A stretch of DNA of 64,000 bases. Source: a virus (taxonomy: Duplodnaviria; Heunggongvirae; Uroviricota; Caudoviricetes). Made by a program: the position numbers and the translations under genes. Numbering within the stretch: the first letter of the stretch is position 1; the number at the start of each line of letters is the position of its first letter. Location of the stretch: the IMG/VR virus record IMGVR_UViG_3300018839_000001; one strand, given 5' to 3'. The notes beneath the pieces were generated by a model. The model did no database searches and was not told the DNA's origin. It worked only from the letters and a program-made list of their open reading frames with translations. Shown here piece by piece: positions 8,625-21,389 of the stretch.

Positions 8625-9641
8625 TCACATAAAGTTTGCTTTCTTTAATAAACGAATTTGTGTAGTCCGATCTGCTTTTTTAATTAAATCAATTAATTTT
8701 TCTTTGGACATGCCTTCTAATCTTTCTAGTGGAATTTTTGTGTCAACGTCCACAGTTAAAAGTTCTTCTAAGTTTTTCTTAGATACGTAATCGTTTAATG
8801 TTGTTGTAGCATTGGCATGATCTCCATGGGCTTGCATCAACTTTATATCTCCGCCACTTAGAATACTCACCTCGTTTATTGATGCTTTTTTGAAAGAGTG
8901 GAATACAATTCTTCTATGACCAAAATCAATATTATCTCGAATGTAATCCATCATTTTTTGAATAGTTTTAGTTGTTAGCTGAAAAATTTTATCCCTTTTT
9001 ACCTCTTCTTTGAACTGCATTAATTCTTGATATAGATCATCAGATAACTTCTTGTAAGATGTCTTATTTCCTTTACCAATTGTTTTGATATACCATATAT
9101 CATCAATGTTGATGATATCATTGAACTCAAGATTTAATATAGACTGCAATCGCCAAGCTGTTGCGTAAGCGACCCTGATAAAAAGAGCTTTTTCTCTGCC
9201 TTTTCTTGTTTTAGACACAAGCTCCATTGCTGTAATAACCTCTTCATGAGTCATGGAATCGTAACTTTCTTTATCATGTTCATCGTACCTCTCCACATTA
9301 AACCACGACAAATCTACATTAAATCCGTCATCGGCTAGTCTTTTATAGCATTCACGAATTGAAGAAATTACGTTATTTACTGTTGTCCCTTTATGGCGCT
9401 CTTTAAGCGCTACTTGATAAGTTTCAATTTGTTTTTTAGTGAAGATAAGGTCTTCCTCGATCAGTTGTTCTAGCTCTTTGCCTCTCATTGTCCTAAAAAA
9501 ATCACGAATATGCCTTTCATAAGTTGATGCGGTGTTTTGACTGTTCTGCCCCTTACGTATCAAATAAGTTCTGATTGTTCCATAAACATTTTTATCCTCA
9601 TTTTTTGTATTGAATTGAATTACATTTTCTAATTTAGCCAT
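8625..9641 (-). CDS. Tyrosine recombinase-family protein with atypical HxxK motif
   Basis: SAM-like N-domain; catalytic pattern R (TAWRL), K (GKGNK), HSFKK instead of HxxR, H (HGDHAN), Y (LNDY); GAGGAGG RBS before ATG at 9641. Confidence 0.85.
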   Translation of the reverse strand: MAKLENVIQFNTKNEDKNVYGTIRTYLIRKGQNSQNTASTYERHIRDFFRTMRGKELEQLIEEDLIFTKKQIETYQVALKERHKGTTVNNVISSIRECYKRLADDGFNVDLSWFNVERYDEHDKESYDSMTHEEVITAMELVSKTRKGREKALFIRVAYATAWRLQSILNLEFNDIINIDDIWYIKTIGKGNKTSYKKLSDDLYQELMQFKEEVKRDKIFQLTTKTIQKMMDYIRDNIDFGHRRIVFHSFKKASINEVSILSGGDIKLMQAHGDHANATTTLNDYVSKKNLEELLTVDVDTKIPLERLEGMSKEKLIDLIKKADRTTQIRLLKKANFM

Positions 9642-9744
9642 ATGCCCCTCCTCTTCTAAGTATAACATAATTAAATTATATTGTACTTATTCTTCATCTT
9701 GTGATAATAAAAGAAAACCCATAAAAACCCAATCATTTACTATT

Positions 9745-12441: not shown

Positions 12442-13662
12442 ATGAAGTTTATTGTAGATACAAATGTTCTTTTAATTAAGCCAGAGATTATTAATGAATA
12501 TGATTGTGTAATCCCCTCTCATGTATTAAGAGAAATTGAACATTTAGAAAAGACAAGAAAAAGTGACAGACAACTTCAATACGATATTCGAAAGTTAAAA
12601 AGATTTCTAGATGATACATCGTCTCATATTTATATTGATTTGAAAGATTATACTTTTACTCTAGACGAAAGTTTAGATGGGCAATATGTCGATAATATCT
12701 TGCTTCAAGTAGCAGTAGATAATGGATACGGGATGATTTCAAACGATCGACTTATCAAAGAAAAATGCAAAATGTTTGAAATCCCCATTAAAAATTTCAA
12801 CGAAAACACCTTTATTGAACATAAAGGATTTAAAGAATTTTTGATGACAAAAGAGGAACTCGATGAAGTTTATCTTAATTTAAACGTAAACAAATTTAAT
12901 TTATTGATAAATGAATATGCAGTTATCAATGACGATTTAAACGGTGAATTGATGGATATCTTGAAATGGAATGGTGAAATGCTCCAGTCGCTACGCAATA
13001 AAAAAGGTCGTATTAAAAATGGATTCAAAACCGATCAGTTTGGAGAATTTCAGCCTCGTGATGAACAACAAGTTATGGCCGTAGACAGCATTTTGAATAA
13101 TCAACTAACTTCTATTCGAGGTCGTGCAGGAAGTGGAAAATCAATTATCGCATTGAATACAGCATGGAATCTCGTTGAAAAAGAAGGATATAAACTGGTT
13201 ATCTTCGTCAACCCTACTCCACTTCGCGATTCTCAAGAACTTGGATTTTATAAGGGAGATAGATTGGAGAAACTATTACAATCGGCTGTAGGCACTATGC
13301 TTAGGTCTAAATTTGGTGATGAAGATGAAATCATTAAACAGATTAATGATAATAATCTTGAAATCCTCCCTTTTGTAGACTTGCGCGGTTATGATACAGG
13401 AGAAATGAAAACAATTGTTTGGATTTTAGAGGCACAAAATTTAACAGCCGACCTGTTGAAATTGGGACTGCAACGTATTAGCGACAATACAAAGGTTATT
13501 GTTGACGGAGATTATTTTGCTCAAGTAGATAAAGATGTATACTCATCAAACAATGGCATGAGACGAATGAGTGAAGTGTTTAGGGGGAATGAAATTTATG
13601 GAGAAATTGAACTTCAAACAATTCACAGAAGTAAAATTGCAGACATCGCTGACAGAATGTAA
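12442..13662 (+). CDS. phoH: PIN-PhoH (PhoH2/YlaK-like) RNase-ATPase
   Basis: N-terminal PIN (FIVDTNVLL...DNILL...SNDRL); C-terminal PhoH ATPase (GRAGSGKS, LGFYKGD, DLRGYD, ILEAQN, KVIVDGD, RSKIADIA). Confidence 0.9.
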   Translation: MKFIVDTNVLLIKPEIINEYDCVIPSHVLREIEHLEKTRKSDRQLQYDIRKLKRFLDDTSSHIYIDLKDYTFTLDESLDGQYVDNILLQVAVDNGYGMISNDRLIKEKCKMFEIPIKNFNENTFIEHKGFKEFLMTKEELDEVYLNLNVNKFNLLINEYAVINDDLNGELMDILKWNGEMLQSLRNKKGRIKNGFKTDQFGEFQPRDEQQVMAVDSILNNQLTSIRGRAGSGKSIIALNTAWNLVEKEGYKLVIFVNPTPLRDSQELGFYKGDRLEKLLQSAVGTMLRSKFGDEDEIIKQINDNNLEILPFVDLRGYDTGEMKTIVWILEAQNLTADLLKLGLQRISDNTKVIVDGDYFAQVDKDVYSSNNGMRRMSEVFRGNEIYGEIELQTIHRSKIADIADRM

Positions 13663-13671
13663 GAATAGCAC

Positions 13672-13700
13672 TTGACAAAACTAATTAATAATGTTATTAT
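13672..13700 (+). promoter_or_regulatory. sigmaA promoter with the 16-bp motif, driving the tRNA/ncRNA cluster
   Basis: TTGACA-AAACTAATTAATAATGT-TATTAT (TATAAT 3 nt further). Confidence 0.8.
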
Positions 13701-13715
13701 AATTACATAACCAAT

Positions 13716-13790
13716 AAGGCGCTCACAGCAAAATTATTTTAGGCTAAATTGTTAATGTTTATAAAATCGTTATTGAAAATTTTGCGCCTT
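13716..13790 (+). ncRNA. ACAGC-bulge element copy 1 (Y-RNA-like, AU-rich interior)
   Basis: AAGGCGC/GCGCCTT terminal stem, 7-nt 5' bulge TCACAGC, second stem AAAATT/AATTTT. Confidence 0.6.
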
Positions 13791-13796
13791 GATTTT

Positions 13797-13868
13797 TCAT
13801 CTATAGCTCAATGGTAGAGCACCTGACTGTTAATCAGGGGGTTGTAGGTTCGAACCCTGCTGGATGAG
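13797..13868 (+). tRNA. tRNA-Asn(GTT)
   Basis: Acceptor TCATCTA/TGGATGA, D-arm GCTC/GAGC, anticodon arm CCTGA-CTGTTAA-TCAGG, T-loop GTTCGAAC; no encoded CCA. Confidence 0.9.
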
Positions 13869-14005
13869 TAGGTGGAGCTTCCACTCCACCGTATTCTGTA
13901 ATGTAAAGTTTGCACATATGCACCACTCCTTTCTAGGTCTTACTGGTGTGCTAGACCTCAAAAAGACGTAGACCAGAGTTATGCTTCTCTTCAAAAAGCT
14001 TAAAT

Positions 14006-14082
14006 CTGGGTATAGGGCAGTCTGGTAGCCTACTCCTCTTGGACAGGAGATGTCGTTGGTTCGAATCCAGCTACCCAGACCA
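14006..14082 (+). tRNA. tRNA-Pro(TGG)
   Basis: Acceptor CTGGGTA/TACCCAG, anticodon arm CTCCT-CTTGGAC-AGGAG, T-loop GTTCGAATC; encoded CCA. Confidence 0.9.
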
Positions 14083-14083
14083 T

Positions 14084-14157
14084 TGCGAAGTAGACAAACT
14101 GGTAAAGTCACTAGCCTTTGAAGCTAGGATTTGTAGGTTCGAAGCCTACCTTCGCAG
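14084..14157 (+). tRNA. tRNA-Gln(TTG)
   Basis: Acceptor TGCGAAG/CTTCGCA, anticodon arm CTAGC-CTTTGAA-GCTAG, T-arm GTAGG/CCTAC. Confidence 0.9.
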
Positions 14158-14162
14158 TTTTA

Positions 14163-14283
14163 AAGACACATACAGCAAAACTACTACTACATATTGTTAT
14201 GATAAAACAGTGGTGAGGGTTCGAATCCCTCCAGAGACAGACTATCTCTGTGGTGTAACGGGAGCATTTATATACTGTGTCTT
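14163..14283 (+). ncRNA. ACAGC-bulge element copy 2 with permuted tRNA-like domain (YrlA-like topology)
   Basis: AAGACAC/GTGTCTT stem + ATACAGCAA. Inside, in order: T-arm GAGGG-TTCGAAT-CCCTC (14215-14231), closed acceptor-like stem CAGAGA/TCTCTG, D-arm-like GTGT-AACGGGA-GCAT. Confidence 0.65.
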
Positions 14284-14325
14284 GCTTAAGAGGATTAGTC
14301 ACCCTCTCCCCTTCTATAAAAAATA

Positions 14326-14383
14326 TAGACACCCACAGCAATTTAACTTTCAAAATTTTATTTAGGCGAAATGAGTGTGTCTA
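14326..14383 (+). ncRNA. ACAGC-bulge element copy 3 (short)
   Basis: TAGACAC/GTGTCTA stem + CCACAGCAA; shares TTTAGGCKAAAT with copy 1. Confidence 0.6.
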
Positions 14384-14389
14384 GGTTTC

Positions 14390-14460
14390 GCACCCGTAGC
14401 TCGAAGGTCGAGCAGGCGGCTCATAACCGCTCGGTTCTGGTTCGATTCCAGACGGGTGCA
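14390..14460 (+). tRNA. tRNA with CAT anticodon, probably Ile2 (lysidine type)
   Basis: Acceptor GCACCCG/CGGGTGC; anticodon arm GGCGG-CTCATAA-CCGCT resembles Bacillus Ile2. G1-C72 is paired and the three G-C pairs are absent, so it is not an initiator. Confidence 0.8.
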
Positions 14461-14513
14461 TAATAAATAAAATAAACCTTTCATCCATAGTTTAATTGAC
14501 TCTCAAAAATAGA

Positions 14514-14542
14514 TTGACACATTTGAAACTATGGATTATAAA
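14514..14542 (+). promoter_or_regulatory. Internal sigmaA promoter in the tRNA cluster
   Basis: TTGACA-N17-TATAAT, without the 16-bp motif. Confidence 0.7.
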
Positions 14543-14639
14543 TTGAAATTTCTGCCGTATCGACAATCGCGCGTAGGAGGTACGAAGAAAACCTGTTTAG
14601 CGACAGCGAGGCAAATCAGTTAGCGCCTCGGTATTCATA

Positions 14640-14711
14640 TGGGATGTAGCCAAGTGGTAAGGCATAGGATTGCAAATCCTAATATCGAGGGTTCGAATCC
14701 CTTCATCTCAT
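14640..14711 (+). tRNA. tRNA-Cys(GCA)
   Basis: Acceptor TGGGATG/CATCTCA, anticodon arm TAGGA-TTGCAAA-TCCTA, U73 discriminator. Confidence 0.9.
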
Positions 14712-14718
14712 CTATTAT

Positions 14719-14799
14719 GCCGAAGTGGTGGAAAGGCAGACACGCCAGATTTAGACTCTGGTGTCGAAAGACGTGCAGGTTCAAGTCCTGCCTTCGGTA
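14719..14799 (+). tRNA. tRNA-Leu(TAG)
   Basis: Acceptor GCCGAAG/CTTCGGT, anticodon arm CCAGA-TTTAGAC-TCTGG, long variable arm TGTCGAAAGACG. Confidence 0.9.
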
Positions 14800-14803
14800 T
14801 CAA

Positions 14804-14927
14804 AAGACACTAACAGCTATTCTAATGCATAACGTGGTCAGTCCCATTCGTAGGTTCGAATCCTACCTGTCGGCAAGTACCGATAGTCGTCAAGTGGCTT
14901 AAGACAGGACTTTATAAACAGTGTCTT
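14804..14927 (+). ncRNA. ACAGC-bulge element copy 4 with complete permuted tRNA-like domain (YrlA-like topology)
   Basis: AAGACACT/AGTGTCTT stem + AACAGCTA. Inside: AGTCC (14840-44), 5-nt variable loop, T-arm GTAGG-TTCGAAT-CCTAC, acceptor CTGTCGG-loop CAAGTA-CCGATAG, TC, D-arm GTC-AAGTGGCTTAA-GAC, A, GGACT pairing back to AGTCC. Confidence 0.75.
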
Positions 14928-14929
14928 GA

Positions 14930-15006
14930 TAGGCGCGTACAGCAATATTCTTAATAGTGTAGATTTAAAAATAATTATGGTAATTTGACAGATATTATTG
15001 CGCCTA
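14930..15006 (+). ncRNA. ACAGC-bulge element copy 5 (AU-rich interior)
   Basis: TAGGCGC/GCGCCTA stem, 7-nt bulge GTACAGC, second stem AATA/TATT. Confidence 0.6.
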
Positions 15007-15011
15007 GCTTT

Positions 15012-15096
15012 GGAGTGTTACTCAAGTGGTTAAGAGGACTGTTTGCTAAACAGTTAGCACCGTAAGGTGGCAGAGGTTCGAATCCTCTACACTCCG
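15012..15096 (+). tRNA. tRNA-Ser(GCT)
   Basis: Acceptor GGAGTGT/ACACTCC, anticodon arm ACTGT-TTGCTAA-ACAGT, long variable arm, G73. Confidence 0.9.
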
Positions 15097-15101
15097 TTCA
15101 T

Positions 15102-15172
15102 GTGGGCTTAGTATAAAGGTAGTATCGATGGTTTCCACCCATCGGGTATCGGTTCGAATCCGATAGCTCATA
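15102..15172 (+). tRNA. tRNA-Gly(TCC)
   Basis: Acceptor GTGGGCT/AGCTCAT, anticodon arm GATGG-TTTCCAC-CCATC, T-arm ATCGG/CCGAT. Confidence 0.85.
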
Positions 15173-15271
15173 TATTTTTTATCTAAAAATCAAATTAATA
15201 ATGCAATAATAGTTTTATTATAATTTCTTAGTTTTACGGAATGTAAAAGAAGAAAAAGGAGAAGTGATATC

Positions 15272-16732
15272 ATGTTAAATCACTTAGTAAATGAATTTAA
15301 TAAAACGGAAACCCTAAATGGAGCATTAGCCTATAAAAGCACCAAATCTGATGTGCTAGACTTATTTTCTATGGGTGGAGCTTATAGAAATAAAAGTGAT
15401 GACGAAGTAGTCAAATTGTTCTCAAAAGCACATGCAGAAGATGCAACTTTAGCAATGAAGACTCTCTTCTATCTTCGTGATATCACTCAGGGCCAAGGAG
15501 AACGCAGATTTTTTCGCTTAGCCCTTCGACATTTGTCAGTACATAACAAGGACTCTCTAGTGAAAAATCTCCATTTGATTCCTTTATATGGTAGATGGGA
15601 TGATATGTGGGAATTACTTGAAACGCCTGTGCAAAAAGAAGTTGTTAACCTTGTCAAAAAACAGTTGCTTGCAGATAAGGATTCAGAACACCCATCTTTA
15701 TTAGCAAAGTGGATGCCAAGTGAGAATGCATCGAGTACCAAGACAAAGAAGTATGCTAAAATTCTCCGAAAAGTATTAGATGTAACGCCAAGACAATATC
15801 GAAAACTTTTATCATCTTTGAGATCAAAGATCGATTTAGTTGAAACAAAAATTACCAAGGGAATGTACGCAGATATTGATTATACTAGGATTCCTTCCAA
15901 GGCAAACATGGTTTATCGAAAAGCTTTTTCACGAAATGACACTATTCGATATGACTCATTCTTAAAAATGTTATCTGAAAATAGAGTTAAAGTAAATTCT
16001 AAAACTCTATACCCTAATGATATTGTCGGAAAAATATTAGGCTCATATTATTGGGATACTCCACATTACACTGAACAAGAAATTAAACTGTTCGAAGGGC
16101 AGTGGAATAATCTTCCTAACTATATTGGAGATAAACCAGAAGATTCAATTGTTATGGCTGATGTAAGCGGAAGCATGTCTGGTACACCAATGAATGTTGC
16201 TATCTCGTTAGCGATGTATATTGCTGAGAGAAATAAAGGTGCTTATAAAGATCATTTTATGACATTTAGTAAACGTCCAGAGTTGGTTAAGATTCAAGGA
16301 ACAAATATTGTCGAAAAGGTTAATAATATTTCACATGCAGATTGGGGTATGAGTACCAATATCGAAAAATCGCTTCAAACAATCTTAGATGTAGCAGTGA
16401 AAAACAACCTCTCAAACGAAGAAGTAGTAAAGAAGATTTACATCATTTCAGATATGCAGTTTAACCACTGTGTTGATGGAGCTAATAAAAATATCTTTAA
16501 AAATATGGAGGAAAAATTCAATAGCTACGGCTACGATTTACCTAACATTGTTTTTTGGAATGTGAACGCGTATAGCAATACGCCTATGACAATGAACGAA
16601 GCTGGAGTACAGCTTGTAAGTGGATTCTCCCCAAGTATCTTAACACAGTTGTTAAACTCTGATGGGAAAACACCATATGACTTCATGCTAGATGTCATCT
16701 GTGGCGATCGTTATCAAAAGGTTACAGCTTAG
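15272..16732 (+). CDS. DUF2828-family protein: helical N-domain + vWA domain (Ro60/TROVE-like architecture)
   Basis: Family motifs T.NGA.AY.ST..VLDLF, YLRDITQGQGER, IPLYGRWDD, LLAKWMPSE, YRKLLSSLR, KVNSKTLYP; vWA MIDAS DVSGSM, FMTFS, WGMSTN, IISDMQF, IVFWNV, VSGFSP. Confidence 0.85.
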   Translation: MLNHLVNEFNKTETLNGALAYKSTKSDVLDLFSMGGAYRNKSDDEVVKLFSKAHAEDATLAMKTLFYLRDITQGQGERRFFRLALRHLSVHNKDSLVKNLHLIPLYGRWDDMWELLETPVQKEVVNLVKKQLLADKDSEHPSLLAKWMPSENASSTKTKKYAKILRKVLDVTPRQYRKLLSSLRSKIDLVETKITKGMYADIDYTRIPSKANMVYRKAFSRNDTIRYDSFLKMLSENRVKVNSKTLYPNDIVGKILGSYYWDTPHYTEQEIKLFEGQWNNLPNYIGDKPEDSIVMADVSGSMSGTPMNVAISLAMYIAERNKGAYKDHFMTFSKRPELVKIQGTNIVEKVNNISHADWGMSTNIEKSLQTILDVAVKNNLSNEEVVKKIYIISDMQFNHCVDGANKNIFKNMEEKFNSYGYDLPNIVFWNVNAYSNTPMTMNEAGVQLVSGFSPSILTQLLNSDGKTPYDFMLDVICGDRYQKVTA

Positions 16733-18706: not shown

Positions 18707-19681
18707 ATGAGTAATTCAAGGCGAAGGAACAACGAAAAACCTAAGAAAAAATGTAGTTCTTGTGGGAAAGATAAAGCGAGCACATTTTTTTACAAAGTAG
18801 ATAGTCCACTATTCCCTGATGGTATGATCAATATTTGTCGTGACTGTGTTCGTGAACAAGTAGATGTTGATGATATAGAAGCTGTGATTGGTTTTTTAAG
18901 ACAGATCGACAAACCCTTTGTTGAAAAGATATGGAATGAAGCTGTTCAGTCTGGAAGACACGCCCTTGGTGAATACATTAGAAAGATTAATTCGCTCCAA
19001 CAATTAAAAGGTAAAACATTCGATGATAGTGATGGTCTACAAGGTATTGGAAAGTCAACAGACCTGCAAACAGCAAAGCTGTCAGATACTATCGAAACCC
19101 AACAGGGAAAACTCATTGAGTATTCAGATGATCTAGTAGATAAATGGGGTATTGGATATAAAAAGCATGAGTATCTCCAGATGGAAAAGTTTTATACAGA
19201 TATGAAGGAGACTCATGAGATTAACACTTCTATTCACATAGACCAATTAAAACAACTATCCTACCTGTCTGTTGAACGAGACAGATTGAGACAGGCTGGT
19301 GATTGGAACAATTACAATAAGCTATCAAAAACTATGGAAGATATGACTAAATCCGCTGGGTTTAGACCTGTGGATAGACAAGGATTAGATGATGCAACTG
19401 GAATTAGAAGCTTTTCTCAGATATTTGAGGAAGTAGAAAAGCGTGGATTTAGAAAACCTCCCGTTGTTACATTTGAAGAAGATGTTGTCGATGCAATGAT
19501 AGTTGCTCTCGCTAATTATTACAACAGACTAGTTGGGAAACAAGTCTTGTCAGAGCTTCCAGAAGAAATTGAACAAGAATTAGATGAATTTTATGAAGTA
19601 GATGAAACTCCAGTAGAATTAAACGAAAATGATTATGATGACATGGACTTTTCCTTAGAGGATGAAGAAGATGAGCAATAA
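18707..19681 (+). CDS. Zn-finger protein preceding TerL; probable terminase small subunit (SPbeta YonG-like position)
   Basis: CSSC...CRDC Zn knuckle, acidic C-terminus, overlaps the terL start. Confidence 0.6.
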   Translation: MSNSRRRNNEKPKKKCSSCGKDKASTFFYKVDSPLFPDGMINICRDCVREQVDVDDIEAVIGFLRQIDKPFVEKIWNEAVQSGRHALGEYIRKINSLQQLKGKTFDDSDGLQGIGKSTDLQTAKLSDTIETQQGKLIEYSDDLVDKWGIGYKKHEYLQMEKFYTDMKETHEINTSIHIDQLKQLSYLSVERDRLRQAGDWNNYNKLSKTMEDMTKSAGFRPVDRQGLDDATGIRSFSQIFEEVEKRGFRKPPVVTFEEDVVDAMIVALANYYNRLVGKQVLSELPEEIEQELDEFYEVDETPVELNENDYDDMDFSLEDEEDEQ

Positions 19682-21389
19682 AAAGTGGAAAACTTGGGAT
19701 GAGTTAGAAAATGTAAAAGGAACAAACTCAAGTAAAAGTATTCATGAAATGTTCCCTGATTTCGCAGAAATGCTTTCCTACTTTCAAGTCTACCCCGATC
19801 GTTTTATAGATTACATTCTTCCAGAAGATAGTACATTTAAGTTATACCCCTTCCAAAGAATCTTTTTAAGAGTAATGGCTAGATATAAGAAAGTATATAT
19901 CACCGCTACAAGGGGAACTTCTAAATCATTTCTAAATATTTTATCCATGTATCTCAAATGTATATTTTTCCCAGGAATTAAATTATCTCTGGTTGCACCA
20001 CAGAAAGATCAGGCTAGTCAGATAGCGCAACAGAATATTGAACAGATATGGAATTTCATTCCTCTACTTAGAAAAGAATGTAAAAAATATACTGACGCAA
20101 AAGATTATACAAGAATAATCTTTTTGAACAATAGTGTTCTTGACATCGTTGTAGCTTCTCAAGGATCACGTGGTCTTCGTAGACACGGATTGTCTTTCGA
20201 AGAAATATGTCAAATGGAAAAGCATAGAGAAGTTATTGGTGAAGTTTTACTCCCACTATTAGCGAACAACCGTAAGGGTGCGGATGGAAAGGTTTCAAAG
20301 CATGAAATACATAAGCAACTAATGTATGTTACAACCGCTTCATCACGGCAGTCATACGCTTGGGAACAATTATTCTCGGTAATGGTTGATATGGCTAGAG
20401 GAAAAAGCGCTTACGTAATCGGTAATGATTATTCTTTGCCAGTAATGTTTGAACAGCTTGATCCAGACTATATCGAAGAGGTCAGGTCTGACCCTTCTAT
20501 GTCTCCTCTTCAATTTGCACGTGAATATATGAGCGTATGGACAGGTTCAAGTGAAAATAGTTTAGTACAACTCAAGGATTTAGAAAAATGCCGAGTTCTT
20601 ACGAAAGCAGAATTTAGTGCCGCCAAAGGTGATCATAAATATGTAATAGCTGTTGATGTTGCGCGTTCAGAGAGAAAGAATACAGCTACCACAGCAATTG
20701 CAATATTTAAGTTGATTCCTAGGGGAAACGGAACCTACTTTAAGCAATTAGTAAATGTTCATACCTATAAAGGAAATATGCACTTTGAAGATCAAAGTAT
20801 TTACATAAAAGAATTAGTGGAAAAGTTTAACGCATCAATGGTTGTTGTCGATGGTAACGGCCTTGGCCGCGGATTGTTGGATTATTTGGTTAAAGAAGAT
20901 AAGTACCCTTCTTACTCAGTCGTAAATGATGATGGGACTTATCAAAAGTATAAACTCCCCAACTCCCTCCCTCTTATCTTTAATGTTATGTCTAATACAA
21001 AAGAAACAAATGCTTCAAATATCCACAACAACTTCATGGCGGTAATATCCAATCATGATTTAAAACTGTTAGTTTCTGATTCAACAATTAAAGAAAAATC
21101 TAAAGAAAAAGACTTTGAAAAATTAGCGGATCAACTTGTTCCTCATGTAGAAACTGGTTTGTTTGTGGATGAAGTTATGAATTTAATATATGAAGCCAGA
21201 GGAAATAAAACAGTTGTAAAGAGAGTTTCTAAAAGCATGGAAAAGGATAGATACTCTGCTGTTTCTTATGGACTTTATTATATTTATCTTGAAGAACAGA
21301 AAAATCAACAAAGAAAAAGAGAAACGGTTGATGCAAAAGGGTTCTTCGCAGTTAGAAAACCAAAAATGAAAATCAGAGGATGGGATTAG
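19671..21389 (+). CDS. terL: Terminase large subunit
   Basis: LYPFQRIFL Q-motif, Walker A-like TATRGTSKS, Walker B-like LSFEEI, RNase H-like nuclease acidic residues (AVDVAR, VVDGNGLG, KDRYSA). Confidence 0.9.
   Translation: MSNKKWKTWDELENVKGTNSSKSIHEMFPDFAEMLSYFQVYPDRFIDYILPEDSTFKLYPFQRIFLRVMARYKKVYITATRGTSKSFLNILSMYLKCIFFPGIKLSLVAPQKDQASQIAQQNIEQIWNFIPLLRKECKKYTDAKDYTRIIFLNNSVLDIVVASQGSRGLRRHGLSFEEICQMEKHREVIGEVLLPLLANNRKGADGKVSKHEIHKQLMYVTTASSRQSYAWEQLFSVMVDMARGKSAYVIGNDYSLPVMFEQLDPDYIEEVRSDPSMSPLQFAREYMSVWTGSSENSLVQLKDLEKCRVLTKAEFSAAKGDHKYVIAVDVARSERKNTATTAIAIFKLIPRGNGTYFKQLVNVHTYKGNMHFEDQSIYIKELVEKFNASMVVVDGNGLGRGLLDYLVKEDKYPSYSVVNDDGTYQKYKLPNSLPLIFNVMSNTKETNASNIHNNFMAVISNHDLKLLVSDSTIKEKSKEKDFEKLADQLVPHVETGLFVDEVMNLIYEARGNKTVVKRVSKSMEKDRYSAVSYGLYYIYLEEQKNQQRKRETVDAKGFFAVRKPKMKIRGWD

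Follow-up and report, generated by a model that had tools for sequence, protein, structure and literature searches.

Organization of the locus

The 64-kb window analysed here (the whole stretch of 64 000 nucleotides taken from IMG/VR virus record IMGVR_UViG_3300018839_000001) carries, upstream of a gene for a DUF2828-vWA protein, a set of tRNA genes interleaved with five copies of a structured element. These elements, their relatives in other phages and their relation to the DUF2828 protein are the subject of this study. Positions 13200-15600 were re-read, and the five copies were found where a sequence-only reading of this DNA had placed them:

13716-13790, + strand: copy 1, 75 nt, AAGGCGC-TC-ACAGCAA...GCGCCTT, with an A/U-rich interior
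14163-14283, + strand: copy 2, 121 nt, AAGACAC-AT-ACAGCAA...GTGTCTT, with a permuted tRNA-like module inside
14326-14383, + strand: copy 3, 58 nt, TAGACAC-CC-ACAGCAA...GTGTCTA, a minimal handle RNA
14804-14927, + strand: copy 4, 124 nt, AAGACAC-TA-ACAGCTA...GTGTCTT, with a permuted tRNA-like module inside
14930-15006, + strand: copy 5, 77 nt, TAGGCGC-GT-ACAGCAA...GCGCCTA

As had been described, each of the five copies has a perfect terminal helix of 7 bp, then two spacer bases, then ACAGC. The box reads ACAGCAA in four copies and ACAGCTA in copy 4. Copies 1 and 3 do share the interior TTTAGGCKAAAT that had been pointed out. ACAGC had been labelled a bulge; it is rather the start of a single-stranded segment in a large internal loop. 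Exact matches to RGRCRCNNACAGC in the window numbered five, all on the + strand and inside 1.3 kb. Allowing one mismatch added no match across the 64 kb, against 1.56 +/- 1.18 in shuffled sequences.

A covariance model was built from a seed of 40 short elements, in which copy 3 was the sole member from the window. Scanned against the window, it recovered two copies outside the seed, copy 5 (39.3 bits, E = 1.5e-6) and copy 1 (33.3 bits, E = 3.7e-5), as well as the seed member copy 3 (39.8 bits, E = 1.2e-6). Copy 2 was partly matched, and no other significant match was found in the window. The five elements are real genes for small structured non-coding RNAs and belong to one widespread phage RNA family.

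Eight tRNAs, detected with ARAGORN and Rfam, are interleaved among the copies:

13796-13869, + strand: tRNA-Asn(GTT), 5 nt 3' of copy 1
14006-14158, + strand: tRNA-Pro(TGG) and tRNA-Gln(TTG), abutting; copy 2 begins 4 nt on
14390-14460, + strand: tRNA-Met(CAT), 6 nt 3' of copy 3
14640-14801, + strand: tRNA-Cys(GCA) and tRNA-Leu(TAG); copy 4 begins 2 nt on
15011-15173, + strand: tRNA-Ser(GCT) and tRNA-Gly(TCC); tRNA-Ser lies 4 nt 3' of copy 5

Copy 5 begins 2 nt past copy 4. The gaps between a copy and the adjoining tRNA or copy, given earlier as 4-6 nt, are actually 5, 4, 6, 2, 2 and 4 nt (range 2-6).

Conservation and covariation of the elements

The nearest named relatives of the window are the Bacillus phages PJN02, FADO, PK-3 and 2S-4. 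PJN02, FADO and PK-3 were scanned, and each holds five copies in the interval from phoH to the DUF2828 gene. The orthologue of copy 1 in PJN02 has the compensated stem AAGGCAC/GTGCCTT. Comparison was extended to 99 further loci encoding protein relatives at 37-96% identity. A simple scan (7-bp stem, two bases, ACAGC) of the 80 most diverse of these loci (37-63% protein identity) gave 178 matches on the gene strand and 24 on the opposite strand, with at least one match in 66 loci. With the covariance model at E <= 0.01, 110 matches were obtained in 86 loci; all 110 lay on the gene strand and none on the opposite strand. The RNA family spans proteins only 37% identical and hosts of several phyla.

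In the model-based alignment, 99.6% of stem cells were paired and two-sided changes occurred at seven of the seven pairs. Compensated cells numbered 190, against 52.9 in shuffles, and none of 500 shuffles reached the observed value. Pairing fell to 22-58% when the 3' partner columns were slid. At the inner six pairs, seven G-U cells and no A-C cell were counted. This alignment was fitted to the model, so that its covariation counts lean towards structure; the strand and positional biases are free of that fit. Counts of G-T versus A-C from a crude one-mismatch scan were too noisy, and the model-based alignment was used instead. As judged from these alignments, the elements act at the RNA level and their closing helix is under selection. 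RNA-level selection had been proposed earlier from the compensatory stem changes among the five copies; the two-sided changes at all seven pairs, the shuffles and the strand count of 110 to 0 bear this out, and the covariation expected in homologues was found in the alignment from 86 loci.

Handle and interior modules

The consensus handle is WAGRCRC-NN-ACAGCAA...GYGYCUW, with a G-poor 5' strand after the box. For the closing helix alone the consensus can be written 5'-WAGRYNN...NNRYCUW-3'; its pairs 2-4 are largely conserved, and covariation is seen at the inner pairs. The stem and box form a constant handle, and the interior is a variable module.

The interiors of copies 1, 3 and 5 consist of a small hairpin without a tRNA-like domain. 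Copies 2 and 4 hold tRNA parts in permuted order, which the sequence-only reading had missed: a variable region is followed by a T-arm with GGTTCGAATCC, by an acceptor-like stem that a loop closes, and by a D-arm-like segment. Their positions are as follows:

14215-14231, + strand: T-arm of copy 2
14232-14250, + strand: closed acceptor-like stem-loop of copy 2
~14251-14268, + strand: D-like segment of copy 2
14850-14866, + strand: T-arm of copy 4
14867-14886, + strand: closed acceptor-like stem-loop of copy 4
14889-14911, + strand: D-arm-like segment of copy 4

Pairing of the T-arm and of the closed acceptor-like stem of copy 2 is kept through two-sided changes in seven orthologues. The tRNA-like stems of copy 4 likewise covary in orthologues from related phages. 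The piece of copy 4 that comprises the D-arm and anticodon stem resembles the 5' half of the neighbouring tRNA-Ser(GCT) (15011-15097), and a likeness to the 3' half of tRNA-Gln is seen in its T-arm, with both scores above the 95% shuffle score. These resemblances suggest that the tRNA-like modules may arise by permutation of resident tRNA genes.

With RNAalifold, the ACAGCA box of copy 2 (14172-14177) was paired with an invariant UGGUGU in the D-like segment (14257-14262) in seven of the seven sequences of the copy-2 type, without covariation. This predicted pairing might be an alternative conformation that masks the box.

A reading in which the elements have no function of their own was also considered. 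They would be decayed or rearranged tRNA genes and operon spacers, or else inverted repeats at the DNA level, for instance recombination sites or miniature mobile elements. The site in a tRNA array fits such an origin, as do the pieces in copies 2 and 4 that are like neighbouring tRNAs, and terminal inverted repeats also mark small mobile elements. However, a T-loop is present in only 38 of 213 distinct elements, the remainder having simple interiors, and the conserved part is the handle. Elements exist without tRNAs, their orientation to the gene is 110 to 0, and the box stands on one arm only. Covarying stems with G-U pairs are left unexplained by symmetry at the DNA level, and the persistence of the family across such divergent proteins and hosts also argues against this reading. 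We regard this reading as highly improbable.

Linkage to the DUF2828 gene

In 57 loci with full flanks, the 500 nt just before the gene held 57 matches on the gene strand and none on the other. The 110 covariance-model matches also cluster in this interval. Proximity to tRNAs was less regular. Only 63 of 152 elements lie at most 10 nt from a tRNA or another element, and 15 loci with elements lack any tRNA in the fetched flanks. Tight juxtaposition to tRNAs is therefore common and not required, and tRNA processing is not the general rule for release of the RNAs. The earlier interpretation thus stands for RNA-level elements with a common handle and falls for tRNA processing as the general explanation.

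The gap directly after the gene is occupied by two or three elements in proviruses of the L012 type and in mycobacteriophage Breezona. Breezona gp55 is a member of the DUF2828 family. In the Breezona locus (L103, 3963-4219), three handle RNAs lie in an unannotated 368-nt gap past gp55, which carries the annotation 'Ro-like RNA binding protein'. At the scale of whole records, 10 of 11 matches in four IMG/VR records (728 kb in total) were at most 3 kb from the gene. The same was true of 8 of 9 matches in the whole genomes of PJN02, Tsamsa and Breezona, and of 18 of 20 in eight whole phage records including SPO1. Whole-genome scans gave no handle match in SPO1, which has tRNAs and no DUF2828 gene, and none in Bxz1, which has a true TROVE gene; the best match to the YrlA model in Bxz1 was 260 nt upstream of its TROVE gene. 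This distribution points to a link of the elements with the DUF2828 gene rather than with tRNAs. Two parallel pairings are therefore apparent: TROVE with YrlA-type RNAs and DUF2828 with ACAGCAA-handle RNAs.

Linkage could also reflect co-regulation only, the RNAs being real and the handle being a processing, stability or regulatory signal for a host factor or nuclease, or a cis-acting leader controlling expression of the gene that follows. Most elements share the gene's strand and fall within the 500 nt before it, where a leader or an autoregulatory site would be expected. A closed 7-bp helix would block exonucleases, and many copies abut tRNAs. In the window, however, the last copy is separated from the gene by two tRNAs and about 265 nt, with a promoter-like site of its own in between, and in L012 and Breezona the elements are downstream of the gene. 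A leader would not be expected in up to ten non-identical copies per genome with modular interiors, and an autoregulatory leader would still imply binding by the protein. We consider co-regulation alone unlikely.

The Ro60-like DUF2828-vWA protein

The gene that follows the array starts 99 nt 3' of the last tRNA:

15272-16732, + strand: gene for a Ro60-like protein of 486 aa (P0001), Pfam DUF2828 and DUF7788/vWA, with the ribosome-binding site AAAGGAG at 15255-15261

P0001 was assigned to PHROG 850 ('RNA-binding protein'). An AlphaFold model of the 486-aa protein was obtained with a pLDDT of 83.5. In a Foldseek search against the PDB, the best 13 chains were all Ro60/TROVE (E = 3e-7 to 4e-4). 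Alignment to Ro60 chains with VIA-align gave Z scores of 13-16.9 across 381-418 aligned residues; matches confined to the vWA domain reached no more than 9.8. Among fold matches in Swiss-Prot, ranks 1-5 were Ro60 (frog, Deinococcus, worm, mouse and human), with telomerase p80 at rank 6 and TEP1 at rank 8. The fold search alone was informative; a sequence search of solved structures with P0001 returned nothing useful. In the predicted model a helical-repeat ring is followed by a vWA domain with a MIDAS site. The MIDAS motif (DxSxS...T...D) is intact, and D297, S299, S301, T362 and D394 are invariant in the family alignment. As modelled, the DUF2828-vWA protein folds like Ro60, and Ro60/TROVE proteins are the only ones to match it over its full length. 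The five copies had been thought to share one protein-binding site. Their common handle does look like such a site, and the candidate protein is the DUF2828-vWA protein encoded downstream, which had been overlooked.

DUF2828 relatives number at least 7,959 in the database. The domain was found in 694 of 50,697 deposited phage genomes, among them Felix O1-type coliphages and phages of Listeria, Staphylococcus, Campylobacter, Mycobacterium and Bacillus. Pfam lists the family in eukaryotes as well as in phages.

Several related RNAs arrayed beside one protein gene also recall the repeat RNAs of type III toxin-antitoxin systems. The RNAs could then neutralize or titrate the Ro60-like protein like an antidote, and would not be adaptors that give it targets. 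The 'Ro-like RNA-binding protein' gp53 of mycobacteriophage LeBron is moderately toxic when overexpressed alone in M. smegmatis (PMC13148394). This toxicity would suit an antidote, its tie to DUF2828 being only the annotation shared with the DUF2828 protein of Breezona. A domain scan of P0001, however, gave no recognizable nuclease domain, and the copies are not tandem identical repeats. Elaborate tRNA-like modules kept by covariation suggest a function of their own. Titration is therefore judged very unlikely.

Comparison with known RNAs

The closest parallel is with the bacterial YrlA and YrlB RNAs and their Ro60 protein (Rsr). In both cases small RNAs are encoded beside a gene for a ring-plus-vWA protein, on the same strand, and a locus has several of them. 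Their two ends pair with each other, and close to the 5' end there is a short conserved motif that is single-stranded. YrlA has the order 5' motif, V, T, closed acceptor stem and D (Chen et al., 2014; PMC4201824). A long form with a permuted tRNA-like domain (copies 2 and 4) likewise occurs here with short forms that lack it (copies 1, 3 and 5, as in YrlB). The model of the phage protein matches Ro60 structures over both domains. The differences lie in the protein family (Pfam DUF2828 and DUF7788, not TROVE, with a likeness to Ro60 by fold only), in the box (ACAGCAA behind a 7-bp helix, versus GNCGAA(N)G or CGAA) and in the frequent embedding of 2-10 handle RNAs in tRNA arrays. Bacterial Y RNAs carry GNCGAA(N0-1)G near the 5' end (Chen et al., 2014; PMC4201824).

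With the YrlA model, the PJN02 orthologue of copy 2 scored 20.1 bits and a Breezona element 21.7 bits, and the T-AS-D core of the middle Breezona element was aligned at 21 bits. Such weak matches are not discriminating, as sub-threshold matches were also obtained in 11 of 14 control genomes.

Metazoan Y RNAs are alike in that the RNA ends form a terminal helix which is the handle for the protein and past which lies a large internal loop or a variable module, and in that their partner Ro60 is a ring-shaped HEAT-repeat plus vWA protein. They are unlike the phage RNAs in having no sequence similarity to them, a different handle motif and transcription by polymerase III. They have no tRNA-like modules (Chen et al., 2014; PMC4201824).

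A different resemblance is to the Class I RNAs of dictyostelids (Rfam RF01414), for which the pattern GTTGRCCTTACAGCAA...GTCAACTG was published (PMC5054030). These RNAs are about 50-65 nt long and have a short covarying stem that joins the ends, ACAGCAA a few nucleotides after its 5' strand, a variable interior, and multicopy, clustered genes. Their stem is of 6 bp with a spacer of 3-4 nt, whereas the phage stem is of 7 bp with a spacer of 2 nt. They have an invariant 5' G, a CUGU tail and a DUSE promoter; the phage copies have a 5' A or T, no CUGU tail and a sigma-A-type promoter-like site. Class I RNAs were reported as unique to Dictyostelia, and the one direct binder shown so far is the RRM protein CIBP/Rnp1A (Kjellin et al., 2021; PMC7919456).

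Among Rfam families, RF01414 ranked first or second for several short elements in relatives (14.3-18.9 bits, against a gathering score of 41.5). The window's own copies gave no match to it at E <= 10, and Swiss-Prot gave no Dictyostelium match to the P0001 fold. AlphaFold DB clusters yielded DUF2828/DUF7788 entries, listed with no organism names. The shared box, the terminal stem and the repeated sub-threshold Rfam matches would allow ACAGCAA-handle RNAs and Class I RNAs to be one class, recognized by DUF2828-family (Ro60-like) proteins. The resemblance is one of a 7-8-nt box and a stem, for which convergence or chance is possible, and we treat it as an unproven and quite doubtful lead. If it were true, the orphan Class I RNAs would have their missing core partner in a DUF2828 protein, for which the uncharacterized protein DDB_G0281243 from a Class I pull-down might be considered, and a second, ancient Ro/Y-type ribonucleoprotein would be common to viruses and eukaryotes.

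The Rfam look-up proposed earlier for the motif was made at gathering thresholds and at E <= 10; the window yielded only tRNAs and noise, and the motif is not catalogued at either setting. No paper that ties an RNA to DUF2828, DUF7788 or PF11443 came up in a literature search. For TROVE proteins, phage pairs of Ro60 and Y RNA are already known (PMC4201824, PMC12135203). Thermus phage phiLo has a Ro60 with Yrl1 and Yrl2, and a phage Ro60-Yrl complex can recruit the host PNPase (PMC12135203). For the DUF2828-paired handle RNA family no Rfam family or describing paper was found; its kind is already known from Ro60 and Y RNA.

Expression signals and other features of the region

Upstream of the array, a promoter-like site was recognized by consensus match only:

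13672-13700, + strand: sigma-A-type promoter-like site, TTGACA, 17 nt, TG-extended TATTAT, ~15 nt upstream of copy 1

Its match to the consensus is 11 of 12 positions, with TG before the -10 hexamer. In the gap 3' of tRNA-Met (14461-14639), TTGACA (14515) is followed 17 nt on by TATAAA, with a leader of ~95 nt that has no significant fold (z = -0.4). This site looks like a second promoter, which would serve the tRNA-Cys to tRNA-Gly half of the array.

The 136-nt spacer between tRNA-Asn and tRNA-Pro (13870-14005) folds at -35.9 kcal/mol (z = -2.9 versus shuffles). It has a GC-rich hairpin at its start, with a T-rich tail next, and was flagged as terminator-like. Neither the handle motif nor an Rfam match was found in it. 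Perhaps it is a further small RNA, or else an attenuator within the array.

In three related Bacillus phages (L001 3524-3877, L002 3523-3876 and L003 3523-3876), a hypothetical coding sequence of 117 aa is annotated within the array of tRNAs and handle RNAs. The window has no counterpart of it. The open reading frame at 14039-14365, which does no more than overlap tRNAs and copies 2-3, is probably spurious.

From a food metatranscriptome came a single contig of 242 nt (14095-14336), and from a wastewater run two of 151 nt, with possible DNA carry-over in either. The sole raw-read RNA run examined had no read on the window. All these data were uninformative on expression or processing.

A PIN-PhoH gene lies upstream of the DUF2828 gene. 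Downstream are a metallophosphoesterase gene (PHROG 284, 'exonuclease') and then the terminase gene. Two genes frame the region more widely:

8625-9668, - strand: tyrosine-integrase gene, upstream
19662-21389, + strand: large-terminase gene, downstream

DNA near-identical to the window was found in metagenome runs from biocrust, soil, sludge and food. The integrase and terminase genes and this metagenome DNA identify the window as a large siphovirus of the Bacillus type, with PJN02 and FADO (Zhangjivirus) as relatives.

Proposed ribonucleoprotein

The RNA family, its covariation, strand bias and gene linkage, and the fold of the protein model, are established. The explanation that we favour, with a probability of about 0.7, is that the handle RNAs are Y-RNA-like partners of the Ro60-like DUF2828-vWA protein and form, by analogy, a phage counterpart of the Ro60-Y RNA particles known from bacteria and animals. 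They are probably its partners because they adjoin its gene in hundreds of unrelated phages.

Judging from the promoter-like sites, the RNAs would be transcribed with the phage tRNAs from the promoter at 13672-13700 and from the site near 14515. They would be released through trimming of the adjoining tRNAs by the enzymes that process these, and by exonucleases halted at the closed helix. Co-transcription with tRNAs and release by tRNA-processing enzymes would fit the spacings of 2-6 nt in the window. From the gene-RNA linkage and the Ro60-Y RNA analogy, we infer that the handle would be bound by the DUF2828-vWA protein encoded downstream. More speculatively, the variable module may gate the ring or tether other factors. 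The tRNA-like modules might tether tRNA-binding enzymes or nucleases, which would give a particle for RNA or tRNA surveillance during infection. Outside hints at such a role are only two: recruitment of host PNPase by a phage Ro60-Yrl complex (PMC12135203) and the toxicity of a mycobacteriophage 'Ro-like' protein overexpressed by itself (PMC13148394).

Several points weigh against this explanation. P0001 has no match to Pfam TROVE (PF05731) at E <= 0.01, and its homologues in Breezona and L012 have none at E <= 0.1. A six-frame TROVE search found nothing in PJN02 or Breezona, while Bxz1 and the control genomes were detected. The YrlA family (RF02553) has no match in the window at E <= 10, and relatives reach 20-22 bits against a gathering score of 69. 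The GNCGAA motif is not in the 5' regions of the copies; GGCGAAA in copy 3 is near the 3' end, in a hairpin and off the pattern. Because a TROVE match, the GNCGAA motif and a significant YrlA score are all missing, the parallel with Ro60 and Y RNA is one of structure rather than demonstrated homology. Strict-pattern matches were absent from 14 of the 80 diverse loci, where the elements may be divergent or absent. The loci had been gathered through a protein search, and the association is drawn from the distribution within genomes and from only two negative-control genomes. A reading of the neighbouring genes as an RNA-repair operon was rejected, since the metallophosphoesterase is a PHROG 'exonuclease' and the neighbours vary among loci. 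Accumulation of the RNAs and their binding by the protein are what we infer, and the handle could be read by a host factor or nuclease instead.

Significance

DUF2828 is a large protein family of unknown function, and its pairing with an RNA family gives a hypothesis that can be tested at the bench. The covariance model is now available for annotation. If the handle RNAs are partners of the DUF2828-vWA protein, they would make a second Ro/Y-type ribonucleoprotein with a handle code of its own. They would account for many unannotated gaps and 'odd tRNAs' in phage tRNA arrays. Such a pairing suggests that phages may carry RNA and tRNA surveillance particles together with their tRNA sets, and would bear on the contest between phages and host defence over tRNA cleavage.

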